Origin: an uncultured Verrucomicrobiae bacterium
Lineage (GTDB): Bacteria > Verrucomicrobiota > Verrucomicrobiia > Limisphaerales > UBA11358
Assembly: GCA_963762585.1 (NCBI GenBank)
Contig: CAVXLF010000023.1
Span: 85,035-149,034, forward strand
Direction: 5' to 3'
Length of the DNA stretch: 64,000 nucleotides
In this document: positions 3,230 through 59,930 of the stretch, piece after piece
How the letters are laid out: each line of letters opens with the position of its first letter
Numbering within the stretch: position 1 is the first letter of the stretch
Notes under the pieces: generated by a model
What the model was told of the DNA's origin: nothing
The model's database searches: none
The model's input: the letters and a program-made list of their open reading frames with translations, nothing else
Position numbers and translations under genes: made by a program

Positions 3230-3802
3230 TTATCTTTTGCGACAGGTTCTGACGCGATACCGCGGCGCGGTTTCCCGGACGTGAAAACCGATCTCGCGGC
3301 GGTTTTCCGGCTTCGGCGGTTCAACCAACTGCCGGATGGCCTCAAATAAACTGGTGATGGCTTCGTCATGGCCGCTGACGCGGGTTTCCAATTCCTTCAA
3401 TTTCTGTGCGAGTTCCTTGTTGGCCGTGATGTGTTCACGCATCCAGACAAACGCACGTACGACCCGGACACTGGCTTCGACGGCCACCGGGCTGTTCAAA
3501 ACACTGGCGAGCATCAACGCGCCATGTTCAGTGAAGGCCGTCGGCAAATGACGATGTCCGCCGTGCAGACTTGAGGTCGCAAATTGCGACCTCAAGTTTG
3601 CAAGCTCTTGATGGGCAAGCTCAAACGCAAAGTCATTGGGGAATCTTTCGGCATTCCGGCGGAATTGTTCTTTTAACCGTTTCGTGGTCACGCCATAAAC
3701 CCGCGCCAGATCAAAATCCAACATAACCCGCTGCCCGCGAATCAGATAAATCATATCTTCGATCCGCAGTACCTGAGCCGCGTTGTTTTTGTAACTGACC
3801 AT
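3230..3802 (-). CDS. ORF6N (KilA-N-like) domain DNA-binding protein inserted between atpA and atpG
   Basis: 190 aa; IRGQRVMLDFDLARVYGVTTKRLKEQFRRNAERFPNDFAF...LRSQFATSS...LPTAFTEHGALMLASVLNSP..A...RAF is the ORF6N family pattern; coiled-coil tail. Visibly more AT-rich than flanks. Confidence 0.75.
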   Translation of the reverse strand: MVSYKNNAAQVLRIEDMIYLIRGQRVMLDFDLARVYGVTTKRLKEQFRRNAERFPNDFAFELAHQELANLRSQFATSSLHGGHRHLPTAFTEHGALMLASVLNSPVAVEASVRVVRAFVWMREHITANKELAQKLKELETRVSGHDEAITSLFEAIRQLVEPPKPENRREIGFHVRETAPRYRVRTCRKR

Positions 3803-5352: not shown

Positions 5353-5745
5353 TCAAAAACTTTGTGCCAATTTATCCAGCCGCGTCCGCACACTGCCGTC
5401 GTAAAGGTCGCTGCCGACCTGGATGCGCAGTCCGCCCAGCAGCGCCGGATTCTGGCGGAACGTGATGTCGGCGCCGGCGCCGTAAATTTTTTTGATTCGA
5501 TCCGCCACGCCCGTCTGCAAATCCGCGGGCAGGGAGGTGGCGCTTTCAATGCGCGCGGCATGCTGTTCCAGATCCAGTTTCACCAGCCGGTGCAGGCGCG
5601 ACAAAATTTCAACGTAACCGCGCGGTTTTTTCGCCAGCAGCAAGGTCGTGGCCTGCCGGACGCGGCTTTCATCCAGCAAACCATTCGCCTGACAACTGCG
5701 GAACAGTTGCCGGGCTTCGCGTTGCGCCAGTTTGGAGATTTTCAT
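5353..5745 (-). CDS. atpH: F1 ATP synthase delta (OSCP) subunit, unusually short
   Basis: 130 aa; position between atpF and atpA; C-terminal LLGGLRIQVGSDLYDGSVRTRLDKL matches the OSCP C-terminus. Shorter than the ~180 aa typical of delta. Confidence 0.75.
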   Translation of the reverse strand: MKISKLAQREARQLFRSCQANGLLDESRVRQATTLLLAKKPRGYVEILSRLHRLVKLDLEQHAARIESATSLPADLQTGVADRIKKIYGAGADITFRQNPALLGGLRIQVGSDLYDGSVRTRLDKLAQSF

Positions 5746-5761
5746 TCCAATTCTTTTGAGA

Positions 5762-5811
5762 TAGGGACGCCGCGCCGCGGCGTCCGGTCAGCGCCGCGCG
5801 CTGACCCTACC
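5762..5811. repeat. 50-nt double-hairpin GC-rich REP-like element (TAGGG...CCCTACC) filling the atpF-atpH intercistronic gap
   Basis: TAGGGACGCCGCGCCGCGGCGTCCGGTCAGCGCCGCGCGCTGACCCTACC: two 9-bp stems with 3-nt loops; 45/50 identical to 21897-21946. Confidence 0.85.
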
Positions 5812-5814
5812 CAT

Positions 5815-6303
5815 CTAGGCCACCAGTTGTTTTTCGGTTTCCTCCGCCAATCGCCGCTGGTCTTCCGGCGTAAGGATCTTGCCGGTGACGGTGGTGGTGG
5901 TCTGCACGACCAGCCGCCCGACTTCCCGTTTCAATTCTTCGAGCATCCGCGCGTGATCCTGCGCGGCGGCTTCGCGCGCCTTGGTGATGATTTGTTCGGC
6001 GGCGGCAATGGCCTTTTGCGTTTCGACTTCGCGCACGTGGGCGGCGGCGGCCCGCGCCTCCTCGATCATCTTGTTGGCGAGGTCGCCGGCCTGGGCCAGA
6101 ACCGCCTGGCGGTCGGTCTCGGTCTTGGCCAGTTGCGTCTTGATTTTCTCGGCGTTGGCCAGGCCATCGGCGATTTTTTCACGGCGCACCTCCAGCATGG
6201 CGAAGATCGGCCGGTAGGCAAATCTCCACAGCACGAAAAAGACGATGGAAAAACTGATCGTCTGCGCGATCAGGATCTTCCACTGGATACCTAAAGCGTC
6301 CAT
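5815..6303 (-). CDS. atpF: Fo ATP synthase subunit b
   Basis: 162 aa; N-terminal TM helix then long charged helix (AEKIKTQLAKTE...), operon position. Confidence 0.8.
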   Translation of the reverse strand: MDALGIQWKILIAQTISFSIVFFVLWRFAYRPIFAMLEVRREKIADGLANAEKIKTQLAKTETDRQAVLAQAGDLANKMIEEARAAAAHVREVETQKAIAAAEQIITKAREAAAQDHARMLEELKREVGRLVVQTTTTVTGKILTPEDQRRLAEETEKQLVA

Positions 6304-16199: not shown

Positions 16200-16441
16200 G
16201 GCTGAATCCGAGGAATCCCAACGGGATTCCATCATTCAGCCCAGGGTTGGCGCGCAGCGACTACCCTGGGTTAAACGCACCCAAAACCATCAACCCCAAC
16301 GGGGTTGCATCAATATTCACCCAAACGAATTCAACCCCGTCGGGGTTGTGTTTCATTTTTGATCCGTTACCCGGCGTAGGCCGATTTCTTCGGCCAACGC
16401 CGGGCTGAATGATGCAGCCCCTTTGGGGCTGAACCCTCAGC
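16200..16441. repeat. Cluster of six short GC-stem / 3-4-nt-loop hairpins, two nested in GGCTGA(AT)...(AT)TCAGCC outer stems
   Basis: GGAATCCC-AAC-GGGATTCC (16212-16230); CCCAGGGT...ACCCTGGG (16240-16270); CAACCCC-AAC-GGGGTTG (16291-16307); CAACCCC-GTC-GGGGTTG (16332-16348); GGCCGA-TTTCT-TCGGCC (16379-16395); CAGCCCC-TTT-GGGGCTG (16415-16431). Confidence 0.7.
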
Positions 16442-21663: not shown

Positions 21664-22449
21664 TTACCCGCGACAATTTTTCATCAAGCGCAGCATCTCC
21701 TTGACCGCGGTTTTGAGGCCAGTCATGACCGCCCGGCTGACGATGCTGTGGCCGATGTTCAATTCCACCAGGTGCGGCACGCGATGGAGTAGCGGCAGGT
21801 TTTCGTAATTCAATCCGTGTCCCGCATTCACCCGCAGGCCGAGCGCGTGCGCCTGCTCCGCGGCGGCGATGAGGCGGTCGAGTTCTGATAAATCGGTAGG
21901 GACGGCGCGCTGCGCCGTCCGGTCATCGCCGCGCGATGACCCTACCTTTTTATAAAATTCCTCCGCAAACGCACCGGTGTGCAATTCGACAAACTGGCTT
22001 CCGACCCGCGCGCTGGCCTCAATCTGCTCTTTATCCGGTGCAATGAACAAACTCACCTCGATGCCGGCATCGTTCATTTTCTGGCGTGTTTTGGTCAGAG
22101 CTTTTTCACTCGCGGCCACGTCCAGTCCGCCCTCGGTGGTCACTTCCGACCGGCGTTCGGGCACGAGGCAGATGATATCCGGTTTTAATTTCAGCGCGAT
22201 GGCGATGATGTCCGGCAGGTTGGCCATTTCGAGGTTGAGCCGGGTTTTGACGGTTTTCCGCAATTTCCAGATATCGCGGTCCTGGATGTGCCGGCGGTCT
22301 TCGCGCAGGTGCGCGGTGATGCCGTGCGCGCCGGCGGCCTCGCAAATCCGCGCGGCCTCGACCGGGTCCGGTTCACCAAATCCACGGTTGCGATAACGCG
22401 CTTCGCGGATGGTCGCGACGTGGTCAATATTGACACCCAGTTTCAACAT
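21664..22449 (-). CDS. pdxJ: Pyridoxine 5'-phosphate synthase (carries in-frame repeat insertion)
   Basis: ATG 22449: [60 protein letters not shown]. Confidence 0.92.
21897..21946. repeat. 50-nt double-hairpin REP-like element inside pdxJ coding sequence
   Basis: TAGGGACGGCGCGCTGCGCCGTCCGGTCATCGCCGCGCGATGACCCTACC; translated on the minus strand as [18 protein letters not shown]. Confidence 0.85.
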
Positions 22450-28980: not shown

Positions 28981-30003
28981 ATGATTGCTGTTGCTGACCA
29001 TTCCGCACCGGTCGTGGACGACCTGCAAGTCCGCCCGGCCATGGCCCCTTCGCGGTTCGAGCCGCTGGCCCGGGAGATTTTCGCGCTCAAAAAGCAGCTC
29101 AACGCCGTCATTCTCGCCCACAATTATCAGGTGCCGGAAATCCAGGACGTGGCGGATTACGTCGGCGACTCGCTCGGCCTGTCGCAACAGGCGGCCAAAA
29201 CGAGCGCGGATGTGATTGTGTTCTGCGGCGTGCATTTCATGGCTGAGACGGCGAAGATTTTGAACCCGAACAAGATTGTCGTGCTACCGGACAAGAACGC
29301 GGGCTGTTCGCTCGAGGAAAGTTGTCCCGCGGACAAACTGGCCGCGCTCCAGGCGACGAATCCCAATTTCTGGACCATCGCCTACATCAATTGCAGCGCG
29401 GCGGTAAAGGCCCTGACCGACGTGATCTGCACCAGCGGCAACGCGGTGAAAATCGTTCAGGCCGCGCCCAGGGACAAGGACATCCTGTTTGTGCCGGACG
29501 AAAACCTGGGTGCGTGGGTGATGGAACAGACCGGCCGCCCGATGACGTTGTGGCAGGGCAATTGTTACGCGCACGTCGAGTTCCGGCGCGAACAGGTGCT
29601 GAAATTGCGCGCGAAATATCCCGACGCCAAGGTTGTGGTGCATCCGGAAAGTTTGCGCGAAGTGCGTGATCTGGCCGACGCGGTTTGCTCGACGGAGCGA
29701 ATGATTTCCTACTGCAAATCGGACCCGGCCAAACGATTCGTCGTGGTGACGGAATCGGGCATAATCCACCGGATGCAGAAGGAATGTCCGGGCAAGGAAT
29801 TTCTATGCGCGCCGGTGTTCGACGTGATGCGGCTGCCGTCGGATCATTGCCGTTGCAGTGAGTGCAAGTACATGAAGCTGAACACGCTGGAAAAGGTGCG
29901 CGACTGCATGAAACAGCTCGCGCCGCGCGTTGAATTACCGGCGGAAATCTTGAAGCGCGCCCGGTTGCCCATTGAGCGGATGCTGGAAATTTCAGCGCGG
30001 TAG
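28981..30003 (+). CDS. nadA: Quinolinate synthase
   Basis: 340 aa; ILAHNYQVPEIQDVAD.VGDS, FCGVHFMAETAKIL, AYINCSA, VVHPES, TESGI; start could be the later Met at 29041. Confidence 0.93.
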   Translation: MIAVADHSAPVVDDLQVRPAMAPSRFEPLAREIFALKKQLNAVILAHNYQVPEIQDVADYVGDSLGLSQQAAKTSADVIVFCGVHFMAETAKILNPNKIVVLPDKNAGCSLEESCPADKLAALQATNPNFWTIAYINCSAAVKALTDVICTSGNAVKIVQAAPRDKDILFVPDENLGAWVMEQTGRPMTLWQGNCYAHVEFRREQVLKLRAKYPDAKVVVHPESLREVRDLADAVCSTERMISYCKSDPAKRFVVVTESGIIHRMQKECPGKEFLCAPVFDVMRLPSDHCRCSECKYMKLNTLEKVRDCMKQLAPRVELPAEILKRARLPIERMLEISAR

Positions 30004-30023
30004 GGCGGCGCTGCCGCGCCGCC
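30000..30023. repeat. GTAGGG-headed hairpin supplying the nadA stop codon
   Basis: GTAGGGCGGCGCTGCCGCGCCGCC: GGCGGCGC-TGCC-GCGCCGCC stem; TAG at 30001-30003 is the nadA stop. Confidence 0.7.
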
Positions 30024-30105
30024 GAGGCCGGGCAGCAGCCTGGCCCTGCCAAAAGTTGGAGACAGGCGCGACGCCGGTTCTACAGCGTAGGTTTGGCCCG
30101 CTGAC

Positions 30106-37129: not shown

Positions 37130-39793
<2,664 letters not shown>

Positions 39794-39947
39794 TTATCGC
39801 CAGACCGGATATGTTGTGGTGCGTAAAAAGCCTCCAAAACCACTTTTCCCGGGCGGAGGAAATGCTTGGAACCAAGGTGGGCGGCCACCTGGTTGGGCAG
39901 CAAAACTTCCGCTTTTCAGTCGCGATGCGGCGTCATATTCTCGGCTG

Positions 39948-42224
39948 GTGAGTCTTCACCGCGACCAACTTTTCGCGCCACTGAAACAATTCTTCGGCTT
40001 CAGTTCCTTCCGTCCGTTGCAGGAGGAAATCATTCGCGACGCGCTCGCGGGCAAGGACGTTTTCGCCGTGCTGCCCACCGGCGGCGGCAAATCGCTCTGC
40101 TTCCAGCTTCCCGCGCTCGTGCAACCCGGACTCACCGTTGTCGTCTCGCCGCTCATCGCGCTGATGAAGGACCAGGTGGACGCGCTACAGGCGGCGGGCG
40201 TGGCGGCGACATTTTTGAATTCATCGCTCGCCGCCGGCGAATCGCGTCCGCGCCTGCGCGGCTTGCACCAGGGCGAGTTCCGGTTGCTCTACGTCGCGCC
40301 GGAGCGGTTAATGTTGTCCGGTTTTCTTGACGACCTGAAGAAATGGAACGTGAACCTGTTCGCGATTGACGAGGCGCATTGCATCAGCGAGTGGGGACAC
40401 GATTTCCGCCCGGAATACCGGCAATTGCAGACGATGCGCGGAATTTTTCCAACCGTGCCGATGATGGCGCTCACGGCCACGGCCACCGAACGCGTGCGCG
40501 GCGACATTGTCCGGCAGCTGCATCTGAAGGATCCCGCGTGCTACGTCGCCAGTTTCAACCGCCCGAACCTGACTTACCGCGTCGCGGCGAAGTCAGGCGC
40601 TTATGACCAGATTCTTTCGTACGTGCAGGCGCGGCCGAACGAAAGCGGCATCATTTACGTGCAGGCGCGCAAAACGGCGGACAGCCTGGCGGCCAAACTT
40701 TCCGCCGACGGCGTGAAGGCGCTGCCGTATCACGCGGGCATGACCCCCGGTGACCGGACGAAAAGCCAGGAGGCATTTCTTCGCGACGAGGCGCGCGTGA
40801 TTTGCGCGACCATCGCCTTTGGCATGGGCATCAACAAGCCGAACGTGCGTTTCGTGATTCACTACGACCTGCCGAAGAACATCGAAGGCTATTATCAGGA
40901 AACGGGCCGCGCCGGCCGTGACGGTCTGCCCGGCGAATGTCTGCTGTTGTTCAGCCCCGGCGACCGGGTCAAGCAGATGCGGTTCATTGACGAAAAACCA
41001 AGTCCGCAGGAGCGCGAAATCGCCCGCGCCCAACTGGAACAGATGATTCACTACGCCGAGATCGCCACCTGCCGCCGTGAATTTCTGCTGGGATATTTCG
41101 GGGAGAAATTTAATCCAAATGAGGTTGTCGGACAAGGTGGGGCGCGTCACTCCGTGCGCGCCGACTTTGCAACATTGGACAACGGCGCGCACGGAGTGAC
41201 GCGCCCGACCGAACCCGTGAATTGTGCCGGCTGCGACAACTGCCTCTCGCCGCGCGCGACCTGGGACGGCACGCTGGCGGCGCAAAAATTTCTTTCGTGT
41301 GTCTATCGCATCCGTGAGAAAAGCGGTTTCGGCGTCGGCATTCAGCACGTGGTCGAGGTGCTCTGCGGTGCGGAAACGGAAAAAGTCCGCAAGTTCGGCC
41401 ACCACACACTTTCGACCTACAACATTGGCGACGGACATGCGCGCGCCGAGTGGAGCGCGATTGGACGTGAACTGGTGCGGCTCGGTTTGCTGTTTCAAAA
41501 CGCGGAGAAGTTCAACATCGTCGAGCTGACCGACGCCGGTCACACGGCGCTGAAATCGCGGCAGAAAATCACGTTGACCAAACCGGTCGCTCCGACCGAA
41601 CCGGCGAAGCATCGCGCCGGCGAAATTGCCTGTGACGAGGCGTTGTTCGAGAAATTGCGCGCGCTGCGGAAACAGCTTGCCGACGCGCGCGCCGTGCCGC
41701 CTTACATTATTTTCTCCGACGTGTCGCTGCGGCAGATGGCGCGGTTTTATCCCGCGAACGAAAAGGATTTTTCGCGCATCAGCGGCGTGGGTGAAAGGAA
41801 GCTGCGCGAATTCGGCGAAGCTTTCCTGGGTGAAATTGCGGCGCATGTGCAGACGAACCCGCGCCAGGTTTTTGCGGATGATTTCCCGGCGGATGGAATG
41901 CCGTCCGCGCCGGTGCCGCGCCGGTCACGGCTGACCGACAGCGTGCGCGAGACGCTGCATTTTTTCCAGCAAGGCCGGGCGGTTTCCGAAATTGCAAAAA
42001 TTCGCGGCTTCAAAGACAGCACGATTTACAGTCATCTTGAAGAAGCCATGCTCGCGGGCGAATCGGTTGATGTGCATTCATTGGTTTCAGCCGAAGCCAG
42101 GCGCGACATCGCCGCAGCCTTCGTCCGGCACGGTTTCGGCAACCTCACCGGCGTGGTCGAATCGCTCGGCGGGAAATACGGTTACGGCGAATGCCGCGTC
42201 GTCCGCGCCGCGTTGCAAAGGTAG
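39948..42224 (+). CDS. recQ: ATP-dependent DNA helicase RecQ (helicase-RQC-HRDC plus C-terminal HTH-like tail)
   Basis: [91 protein letters not shown], CxxCDNC, HRDC ([15 protein letters not shown]). No in-frame ATG; GTG 39948 proposed. The track ORF start 39540 overlaps gyrB. Confidence 0.92.
41136..41210. mobile_element. REPIN (inverted REP doublet, 28+19+28 nt) inserted in frame in recQ
   Basis: GGTGGGGCGCGTCACTCCGTGCGCGCCG (41136-41163) and CGGCGCGCACGGAGTGACGCGCCCGACC (41183-41210); each is 27/28 identical to the arms flanking the RAYT gene at 59.3-59.9 kb. Confidence 0.85.
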
Positions 42225-42268
42225 GGACGCCGCGCTGCGGCGTCACCGCCCGCGAAATAGCGGGCGGA
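42221..42268. repeat. GTAGGG-headed hairpin pair supplying the recQ stop codon
   Basis: GTAGGGACGCCGC-GCT-GCGGCGTC then CCGCCCGC-GAAATA-GCGGGCGG; TAG at 42222-42224 is the recQ stop. Confidence 0.75.
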
Positions 42269-45234: not shown

Positions 45235-45342
45235 ACCGCAGAGACGCAGAGGTGGGGTTGGCGCGCTGCGCCGACCGCGCCGCGTGCAGCGGCGCAAGCG
45301 AGATGGATTGTGACTGAGTGACGCGAGAGGAGCGTCCGGTTC

Positions 45343-45387
45343 CGGCCCTGAACGGGCCGGAGGTCATCGCAGCGCGATGACCCTACC
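45343..45387. repeat. Hairpin pair ending in CCCTACC tail
   Basis: CCGGCCC-TGAAC-GGGCCGG then GGTCATCGC-AGC-GCGATGACCCTACC; the second stem is identical to hairpin 2 of the pdxJ element. Confidence 0.7.
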
Positions 45388-45491: not shown

Positions 45492-48812
<3,321 letters not shown>

Positions 48813-48841: not shown

Positions 48842-48935
48842 AACATCCAACATCCAACATCCAACATCCAATTCCCAATGCCGGCGGTGCAGGCATCATT
48901 GGATGTTCGGCGTTCGATGTTGGATGTTGGATGTT
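48842..48935. repeat. Inverted pair of heptamer arrays (AACATCC xN ... GGATGTT xN)
   Basis: AACATCC x4 perfect plus 2 degenerate (48842-48883); GGATGTT-type x5, 3 perfect (48901-48935); the arms are reverse complements. Confidence 0.85.
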
Positions 48936-59293: not shown

Positions 59294-59930
59294 GGTAGGG
59301 CGCGTCACTCCGTGCGCGCCGTCGTTGTTCGTGCGGCGGGCAGGGGACTGCCCGCCCTACCCAAACGTGGGTGACGGTCGGTTATTCGGGCGATAGACCC
59401 ATGCCCAGTCTTCCGCGCGCTCGCACAATCCTTTACGGACAGGATTCATCAGAATGTAGCTGGTCTTCTCCGCCAATTCATTATGATCGCGCAGACGGTG
59501 ATCGAAGAAATCGCGTTGCCAATGCACATCGTGTTTTAAAGCCACATATTTCTTCCAATTTTTCATCACCGTTTCAATTCCTGGTTCGCGCGGGAACGCG
59601 AGGAGGGCATGCAAATGATCCGGCATGAGCAGGCACAGCCGACAATGCCAGATAAGTTTCTCATGGTTGTATTTCATCGCCGCCAACACAGCATCGCCGG
59701 TTCCGGCCTGGCATAAGTGATTTCTTCCCGGCGGCATGCATTTGATCGTGATGAAGAACCAACTTCCCTCAGCCACCCACTGCGGAATTGTGTGCGGCAG
59801 CTTTTTGCGGACAGGCAAGTCCATTAAGTGAAACGCAACCGAGGCCAACCGTGAAAGTTGGGCTCCGTAAGTCGTCTATGCGCCTTTAGTATTTTCGAAC
59901 AACGGCGCGCACGGAGTGACGCGCCCTACC
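59294..59930 (-). mobile_element. RAYT unit: tyrosine transposase gene bracketed by perfect 28-bp inverted REPs
   Basis: GGTAGGGCGCGTCACTCCGTGCGCGCCG at 59294-59321 and its exact reverse complement at 59903-59930. An additional GTAGGG-headed hairpin (59335-59362, minus orientation) supplies the RAYT stop. Confidence 0.85.
59357..59824 (-). CDS. REP-associated tyrosine transposase (IS200/IS605 Y1 superfamily)
   Basis: GSWFFITIKC, LLMPDHLHALL (HUH), WQRDFFDHRLRD, YILMNPVRKGL (catalytic Tyr), collinear with E. coli-type RAYT. ATG 59824 preferred over TTG 59848. Confidence 0.85.
   Translation of the reverse strand: MDLPVRKKLPHTIPQWVAEGSWFFITIKCMPPGRNHLCQAGTGDAVLAAMKYNHEKLIWHCRLCLLMPDHLHALLAFPREPGIETVMKNWKKYVALKHDVHWQRDFFDHRLRDHNELAEKTSYILMNPVRKGLCERAEDWAWVYRPNNRPSPTFG

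Follow-up and report, generated by a model that had tools for sequence, protein, structure and literature searches.

The atp element and its setting

The 64-kb window examined here (the whole stretch of DNA that was analysed) carries an ATP synthase operon on its minus strand, in which the genes follow one another in the order atpB, atpE, atpF, element, atpH and atpA. The element in this series is a short palindromic repeat in the spacer between the genes for the b and delta subunits. The calls of these two genes in a first-pass annotation of the sequence proved correct in Pfam searches; both genes lie on the minus strand. The features of this region are as follows.

5815 to 6303, minus strand: atpF, ATP synthase b subunit (PF00430, E 7.8e-22), with its stop codon TAG at 5817-5815
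5760 to 5811, unstranded: REP doublet, a tail-to-tail heterodimer consisting of a degenerate head GATAGGG, hairpin 1, hairpin 2 and head CCCTACC
5765 to 5785, unstranded: hairpin 1, GGACGCCGC-GCC-GCGGCGTCC, with the C-G allele at pair 9/19
5786 to 5806, unstranded: hairpin 2, GGTCAGCGC-CGC-GCGCTGACC, with the G-C allele at pair 30/40
5353 to 5745, minus strand: atpH, delta subunit, 130 aa (Pfam)

The doublet starts 4 nt past the atpF stop codon and ends 14 nt ahead of the atpH ATG, the stem of the second hairpin ending 19 nt ahead of the same ATG. Its 50 nt at 5762-5811 read TAGGG-ACGCCGCGCCGCGGCGT-CCGG-TCAGCGCCGCGCGCTGA-CCCTACC. Inverted heads, GGTAGGG and CCCTACC, form the two ends of a doublet with the overall structure GGTAGGG-hairpin 1-hairpin 2-CCCTACC, and in the atp copy one of these heads is degenerate (GATAGGG instead of GGTAGGG). 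Neither the inverted heads nor the degenerate one had been noted in the first-pass annotation. Read outward from its head, each half is composed of GTAG-GG, four variable stem bases, CGC, a GCT loop, GCG, the complement and CC; hairpins 1 and 2 have in common their head, the top of the stem (CGC/GCG) and a GCT loop. Each hairpin has a 9-bp stem and a 3-nt loop, and the same design is found on either strand. Since both halves follow one design when they are read from the inverted heads, the atp element is a spacerless tail-to-tail dimer of two related REPs with GTAG heads.

The first-pass annotation had proposed two stable hairpins, and thermodynamic folding did return them for the doublets of the window: the predicted RNA folds reach -36 to -40 kcal/mol (z -4.5 to -6.3), and none of 200 shuffled sequences folded as well. 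As single-stranded DNA the doublet folds at -23.6 kcal/mol on either strand. The minimum-energy fold consists of two adjacent hairpins with different stems and without a spacer between them. A scan of the whole window against Rfam 15 gave no match at the gathering score.

Two further observations concern the operon itself. We suspected that atpH had been truncated by the element, as its Pfam match is limited to OSCP positions 52-171; this was rejected because all of 80 relatives match residues 1-130, and a short delta subunit of 130 aa is normal for the clade. Between atpA and atpG, inside the operon, lies an ORF6N-domain gene (PF10543, E 1.6e-34; 190 aa, 3230-3802, minus strand) in the same frame as atpG and with one stop codon between the two, which is an unusual passenger for an atp operon.

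A repeat family with constrained hairpins

A second full copy of the doublet is found elsewhere in the window.

21895 to 21946, unstranded: twin doublet with intact GGTAGGG/CCCTACC heads, inside pdxJ, where the minus strand reads a 17-residue peptide
21664 to 22449, minus strand: pdxJ, 261 aa from the start that matches its homologues, host of the in-frame twin

This twin was placed by the first-pass annotation within the pdxJ open reading frame, and it does lie there in frame. The repeat finder aligned 5762-5811 with 21897-21946 at 45 of 50 positions (90%), and a search of the window allowing up to 3 mismatches to the 50-nt element returned nothing else, the chance expectation being 0. The five differences between the twins are those that had been listed: C-G to G-C at positions 9/19, G-C to T-A at positions 30/40, and a base in the hairpin-1 loop (position 15). 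All stem differences thus preserve pairing and amount to two compensated base pairs, the remaining difference being one loop base. If four stem differences were placed at random, the chance of their forming two complementary pairs would be about 3e-4 (153/58905 x 1/9). The two partial recurrences named in the same annotation are also real, with hairpin 2 at 45362-45387 and a hairpin-1 variant at 42220-42246.

To place the doublet in a family, one genome per species was scanned with a pattern in which the outer stems were fixed and the inner four pairs and the loops were left free. The scan yielded 70 further loci, nearly all of them from Verrucomicrobiota MAGs; the genome of the window itself was not among them. 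Because the outer stems were fixed during the selection of these 70 loci, the inner pairs alone are informative. No more than 3 exact-pattern copies were found in any genome (one genome per species being scanned), far below the numbers of classical REPs. Across 72 copies 98.3% of stem cells are paired, compared with 95.0 +/- 0.4 in shuffled controls, of which none in 500 reached the observed value. Covariation occurs at exactly two pairs, 9/19 and 30/40, the very pairs that differ between the twins of the window. Among 30 distinct sequences, pair 9/19 is G-C in 18, C-G in 9, U-G in 1 and unpaired in 2, and pair 30/40 is U-A in 24, G-C in 5 and A-U in 1; these cells count sequences and not events, and few events are common to many copies. 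G-C and C-G at 9/19 and T-A, G-C and A-T at 30/40 are standing alleles across the copies. A second sample, picked by AtpH homology and blind to the element, added one more compensated pair in hairpin 2, A-T to G-C. The loop bases vary freely and the stems do not, and with some 98% of stem cells paired this argues that the hairpin stems are constrained.

The earlier claim that the folded form is under constraint is borne out by these numbers, and the compensatory changes on which it was built are real. What does not stand is the idea that the twins diverged from each other by compensation in situ: they carry sub-family alleles that pre-exist in dozens of species. The twins would descend from different sub-family alleles, and for that reason would differ only by compensated pairs. 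An RNA-specific signature was sought in single changes on the sense strand (G.U versus A.C) and abandoned, the counts being small and balanced and so uninformative.

The heads GGTAGGG/CCCTACC are present in 70 of the 72 copies, and in the window this heptamer head occurs 9 times versus 1.3 expected. With GTAG at the end of the palindrome and a stable stem-loop kept by complementary changes, the doublet has two of the properties by which GTAG-type REPs are recognised. A scan defined by the heads gave 117 doublets of several stem classes, 113 of which fold at -20 kcal/mol or better, and homodimeric relatives exist among them. The 64 kb of the window hold two full copies and two to three partial copies of the family, in addition to other REP classes.

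The taxonomic labels of some doublet-carrying contigs (L006, L007, L011, L020, L031, L035, L063 and others) are Acidoferrum, Sulfopaludibacter, Methylomirabilota, Pseudomonadales or Bifidobacteriaceae. Since the genes that host the doublet and the sites of insertion agree with those in Verrucomicrobiota, errors of binning or labelling in the MAGs seem more likely than horizontal spread.

Copies within protein-coding genes

The doublet is a 51-nt unit of 17 codons, and the copy in pdxJ is read through in frame. Around 38 of the 72 copies lie in a frame that runs without a stop codon for 40 codons or more in either direction; 32 of these are in orientation A (VGSS...) and 6 real ones in orientation B. 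The extragenic location that is expected of GTAG-type REPs therefore does not hold for the family as a whole, and the atp copy itself is extragenic. When host open reading frames were tested, 19 of 20 turned out to be conserved enzymes. The hosts include MqnC/CofH, GlnRS, MiaA, an RluB-like synthase, GlmS, ComB, HemA, RecN and HsdM as well as RibD, FolP, HisC, SpoU, PanC, LysRS, PabB/TrpE, FadB and others. Across Verrucomicrobiota MAGs more than 20 different housekeeping enzymes carry the insert. Often the same position is occupied in several species, as is the case in PdxJ, GlmS, MiaA, GlnRS, HisC, the RluB-like synthase and LysRS. In an alignment of PdxJ of the window with E. coli PdxJ (PDB 1M5W) a gap of 16 residues falls at the insert. 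The AlphaFold model of PdxJ (mean pLDDT 76) renders the insert as a low-confidence surface coil between two barrel helices.

The orientation of intragenic copies is strongly biased, the sense strand encoding VGSS at about 20 distinct sites and VGTA at about 3. This could reflect either tolerance for the peptide or a strand bias of insertion.

A RAYT gene and other repeats in the window

The window also encodes a RAYT (REP-associated tyrosine transposase), and it holds REPs of several classes at further positions.

59357 to 59848, minus strand: RAYT gene, 163 aa (NF047646, REP_Tyr_transpos, 86.2 bits at a cutoff of 80; PDB 4ER8, E 7e-6)
59294 to 59361, unstranded: doublet at the 3' end of the RAYT gene, made of REPs of another class, GGTAGGGCGCGTCACTCCGTGCGCGCC ... 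CGGCGGGCAGGGGACTGCCCGCCCTACC
59898 to 59930, unstranded: inverted single REP of the same class as the 3' doublet, upstream of the RAYT gene
41136 to 41210, plus strand: 75-nt in-frame REPIN of the RAYT-flanking class, inside recQ
42220 to 42246, plus strand: single REP of the hairpin-1 type, whose GTAG head gives the recQ stop codon (TAG 42222-42224)
45251 to 45387, unstranded: composite element between convergent genes, in which a REP with a GGTGGGG head (45251-45277) is combined with a CCCTACC-headed hairpin-2 REP (45362-45387)
29999 to 30052, unstranded: degenerate GTAG doublet over the nadA stop codon

The structure matched by the RAYT, PDB 4ER8, is E. coli TnpA-REP. The RAYT gene is flanked by inverted GGTAGGG-headed REPs, as is characteristic of REP-RAYT genomes. 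The stem of the flanking REPs, CGCGTCAC-TCC-GTGCGCG, differs from those of the doublet. At the window locus and at five distinct orthologous loci (L151-L153, L155, L156) the flanks are of the GGTAGGGCGCG(T)CAC... type and never hairpin 1 or hairpin 2, only the head being common to both. We therefore rejected the RAYT of the window as the cognate transposase of the hairpin 1/2 class, and no RAYT flanked by that class was found at these loci. Roughly 1 Mb of fetched loci contained one further, weak RAYT-like match only. RAYT homologues are numerous in metagenomes (more than 2000, typically 155 aa and on short contigs), and several orthologues take their stop codon from the TAG in a GTAG head.

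Stop codons of this kind occur in other genes of the window. The recQ gene (39540-42224), which contains the in-frame 75-nt REPIN as a 25-residue peptide in its Zn-binding domain, ends on the TAG of a GTAG head, and nadA likewise stops at the TAG within the GGTAGGG head of the degenerate doublet between convergent genes. Other repeats include inverted arrays of the heptamer AACATCC / GGATGTT at 48842-48935 (39-nt arms, 82% complementary), just upstream of a long open reading frame at 45492-48812 on the minus strand, and a 35-nt inverted repeat at 16217-16251 and 16393-16427 (83% complementary), with its arms 141 nt apart.

Relation to known palindromic repeats

The closest described elements are the GTAG REPs of the verrucomicrobium Opitutus terrae (Di Nocera, De Gregorio and Rocco 2013, PMC3733652). 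GTAG REPs, their tail-to-tail dimers with spacers of 1-2 bp and intragenic dimers in O. terrae, where such dimers are most abundant, have already been described, and sub-families with alternative complementary stem residues are a known property of this class (PMC3733652). Like the doublet, O. terrae GTAG REPs have a terminal GTAG next to a GC-rich stem of 6-9 bp and a short loop; they form tail-to-tail dimers with spacers of 0-2 bp and occasional G-T pairs, many of them intragenic and in frame, and they flank RAYT genes in a member of the same phylum, Verrucomicrobia. The stems differ, however, and the O. terrae inserts encode peptides such as VGPALAAG (PMC3733652). In contrast to the O. terrae dimers, the doublet is a fixed 51-nt, 17-codon unit that is nearly unchanged in dozens of species, at no more than three exact-pattern copies per scanned species genome. 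Replacement at fixed sites and conservation in excess of the flanks are seen here and were not reported for O. terrae (PMC3733652).

With the REPIN-RAYT systems (Bertels and Rainey 2011, PMC3116915) the doublet shares two inverted REPs per unit, a single-copy RAYT flanked by REPs, long persistence with mostly vertical descent, and populations around a master sequence. A classical REPIN, however, contains the same REP twice with a spacer and folds into one long hairpin, whereas the doublet is a spacerless heterodimer of two side-by-side hairpins closed by the heads and in this sense is not a REPIN. The doublet family further differs in being mostly intragenic and in that no RAYT flanked by its hairpin class was found.

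Similarities also exist to the BIMEs of E. coli, mosaics of Y and Z REPs, which likewise combine two REP types in alternating orientation and occur inside operons. BIMEs have known effects on mRNA stability, defined linker motifs and binding of IHF and gyrase, whereas the doublet is without a linker. A further resemblance is that among E. coli strains the same intergenic sites are polymorphically occupied by BIMEs.

Palindromic repeats within genes have precedents as well. Rickettsia palindromic elements (RPEs) lie in frame in functional protein-coding genes, to which they add a surface peptide (cited in PMC3733652). They are longer or of the CGTC class, belong to another phylum and, unlike the doublet, are without a GTAG head or RAYT association. 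The mobile GC clusters of yeast mitochondria ('byps') are short GC-rich hairpin inserts in coding sequence that are bypassed in translation. The doublet, in contrast, always keeps the frame of its host and contains no stop codon in it, which favours plain translation over bypassing.

The same sites in related genomes

We compared 80 atp loci whose AtpH is 73-100% identical to that of the window (one of them, L071, being from the same organism), with gene boundaries anchored by tblastn. Of the 80 relatives, 77 have at least 30 nt between atpF and atpH, with a median spacer length of 63 nt. Spacers of at least 30 nt are found in 0 of 26 cases at the atpB-atpE junction, in 2 of 74 at atpE-atpF and in 10 of 77 at atpH-atpA. 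This preference for atpF-atpH could be functional, or the other junctions, with overlaps or spacers of 7-9 nt, could be too tightly coupled for inserts. In 55 of the 80 relatives the atpF-atpH spacer folds at -15 kcal/mol or better, with at least seven unrelated doublet families among the occupants, and in the other 25 (about 30%) the hairpin is weak or missing. Copies of the family lie at the atp site in opposite orientation at L072, L084, L096, L125 and L145. Other spacers hold AT-rich palindromes (about 12) or an unstructured stretch of 33-35 nt (about 12), and three have only 9-10 nt. The distance from the atpF stop codon varies among the occupants. Five copies of the same family at the atp site are 95% identical over 52 nt, compared with 77% for the adjacent atpH coding sequence and 62% for its third codon positions. 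At L121 and L122 the spacer carries an insert of 437 nt.

A similar turnover is apparent in the PdxJ loop. Among the 120 best PdxJ homologues there is no truly empty site; each has some insert, of at least five types, and internally deleted (AGSSRRAVPA) and expanded forms occur as well. The type of insert tracks the rest of the protein poorly: the nearest neighbour by insert-free PdxJ shares the insert type in 61 of 118 cases, versus 34 by chance, and different inserts are found in PdxJ genes with 96-97% identity over the remaining sequence. An example is the pair L157 and L158, where pdxJ flanks of about 97% identity enclose a decayed copy of this doublet in one and an unrelated GTGG-headed element in the other, with the right-hand junction lying exactly between ...CC and GAT.

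Protein loops, in frame, and one operon spacer accommodate the doublet. Among relatives it is found exchanged or inverted at the same position, and it is far more uniform than neutral sequence.

Proposed explanation and alternatives

We consider it probable, at roughly 80%, that the element is a tail-to-tail dimer of related GTAG REP hairpins, similar to BIMEs and REPINs and part of a superfamily of the RAYT (Y1/HUH)-linked kind in Verrucomicrobiota (Limisphaerales and relatives), and that it travels in the atp mRNA as a passenger. In such a scheme the stems would be conserved as the GTAG-adjacent hairpin that is recognised by a maintenance machinery, presumably a RAYT acting on single-stranded DNA, and the copies would be kept uniform by replacement or homogenisation in place at sites already occupied. 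Counting against this reading are the different REP class at the flanks of the RAYT loci compared, the low number of exact-pattern copies per scanned genome and the mostly non-extragenic location of the copies. Movement of the elements is indicated here by replaced states and not by direct observation. The strong conservation could alternatively be read as a function for the host. In the atp transcript the doublet would place two stable hairpins just past the atpF stop codon without having been built for regulation; as a side effect they may shield the mRNA upstream of them or loosen the coupling to atpH.

A different reading follows the suggestion of the first-pass annotation that the hairpins set differential mRNA stability or translation between b and delta. 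The doublet would then be a selected cis-regulatory RNA in the polycistronic atp mRNA, possibly an exapted REP, which acts as a barrier to 3'-exonucleases or as a decoupler and sets the b:delta ratio. REPs are known to influence the stability of mRNAs from E. coli operons (summarised in PMC3733652). In the sense RNA the hairpins form stably in context (-48 kcal/mol over 120 nt), start 4-9 nt past the atpF stop codon and do not cover the GGA-ATG region of atpH, and atpF-atpH is the preferred junction of the operon for hairpin inserts, with most of its spacers folding well. Nevertheless we regard this reading as possible but rather unlikely. Of the 80 relatives, 25 have weak or no structure at this junction and three have spacers of 9-10 nt, and the occupants are from unrelated families, in both orientations and at variable distances from the stop codon. 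The same pattern of replacement is seen inside pdxJ, where an intercistronic role is impossible, and most copies of the family are intragenic. By analogy with E. coli, moreover, a REP so near the stop codon would be expected to lower and not to raise expression of the upstream gene: an E. coli REP close to a stop codon reportedly has this effect (Liang, Rudd and Deutscher, in 2015). Given that some 30% of relatives are poor in hairpins, that occupants are interchangeable and that pdxJ shows the same dynamics, any effect on atp expression is probably incidental. As judged from sequence comparison, the doublet is a copy of a repeat family, and an atp-specific regulatory role for its hairpins is a hypothesis.

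The compensated differences might also be mutational and unselected: intrastrand template switching would copy a change from one arm to the other, or gene conversion would spread it from copy to copy, and the elements would be neutral junk. In a palindrome, template switching guided by the hairpin can produce a compensated double change in a single event, so that such changes are weaker evidence of selection than they appear. In agreement with this, only two or three pairs covary and many copies have the same two or three alleles at each of them, which points to few events, and single-sided changes are roughly balanced between G.T and A.C on either strand, with no sign of RNA-specific wobble tolerance. 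Neutral junk at a fixed site should, however, have fallen to about 62% identity, the level of third codon positions, and the element stands at 95%. It is also the loops that vary and not the stems. Decayed copies do exist (at L157 and in several PdxJ peptides), which indicates that decay happens once maintenance lapses. On balance we consider a purely mutational origin unlikely.

It is very unlikely that the 17-codon insert is a selected peptide module of enzymes, of which the atp copy would be a stray. A single frame is always used, and the same 17-residue peptide recurs in more than 20 different enzymes. The other two frames, however, hold TAG and TGA in both orientations, so that the use of a single frame amounts to a survival filter. 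The residues that vary in the peptide (C/R/G/Y at residue 6, Q/R/P at residue 12) are encoded by loop bases, whose changes alter amino acids, so that what is constrained is the nucleic acid and not the peptide. Both orientations occur in genes and give different peptides, as in HisC and SpoU, where the insert is in opposite orientation and encodes a different 17-residue peptide. Unrelated peptides replace one another at the same position of PdxJ, and the insert is modelled there as a low-confidence coil at the surface. An intrinsic terminator or attenuator between atpF and atpH, which the GC-rich hairpins might bring to mind, is scarcely credible, as neither hairpin is followed by a T/U run on either strand, a terminator scan reported no site at 5760-5811, and the element is also read in frame within essential genes, whose premature termination would kill the cell.

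Returning to the REP dimer as the preferred reading, the data bring up a more specific and still tentative idea, which we consider possible but doubtful: that GTAG-bounded doublets hold fixed genomic slots, in enzyme loops and in the atp spacer, whose content is exchanged, inverted or refreshed in place and in frame, either by RAYT-type cutting at both heads or by very short-tract recombination. If true, such an exchange would explain why unrelated families and both orientations are met at the same nucleotide position in close relatives, why the element retains about 95% identity next to neutral flanks at about 62%, and why near-identical pdxJ genes carry different inserts. It would also provide the first natural before-and-after record of the movement of a REP doublet.

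Implications

For the annotation of verrucomicrobial genomes these results mean that the 51-nt units should be masked as REP doublets and not treated as regulatory RNAs, and that the 17-residue loops in PdxJ, GlmS, MiaA, GlnRS, HisC and other enzymes are derived from repeats. The atpF-atpH site offers a simple test bed for the effects of passenger hairpins on operon expression. In a wider context, how REP and REPIN elements are moved in vivo by RAYTs is a standing question, on which these fixed sites bear: the swapped, inverted, decayed and short states (with a spacer of 9-10 nt) among close relatives provide exact junctions for comparison. Tail-to-tail dimers of GTAG REPs were already known, and it is their exchange in place at fixed, often coding, sites that is the part worth following.
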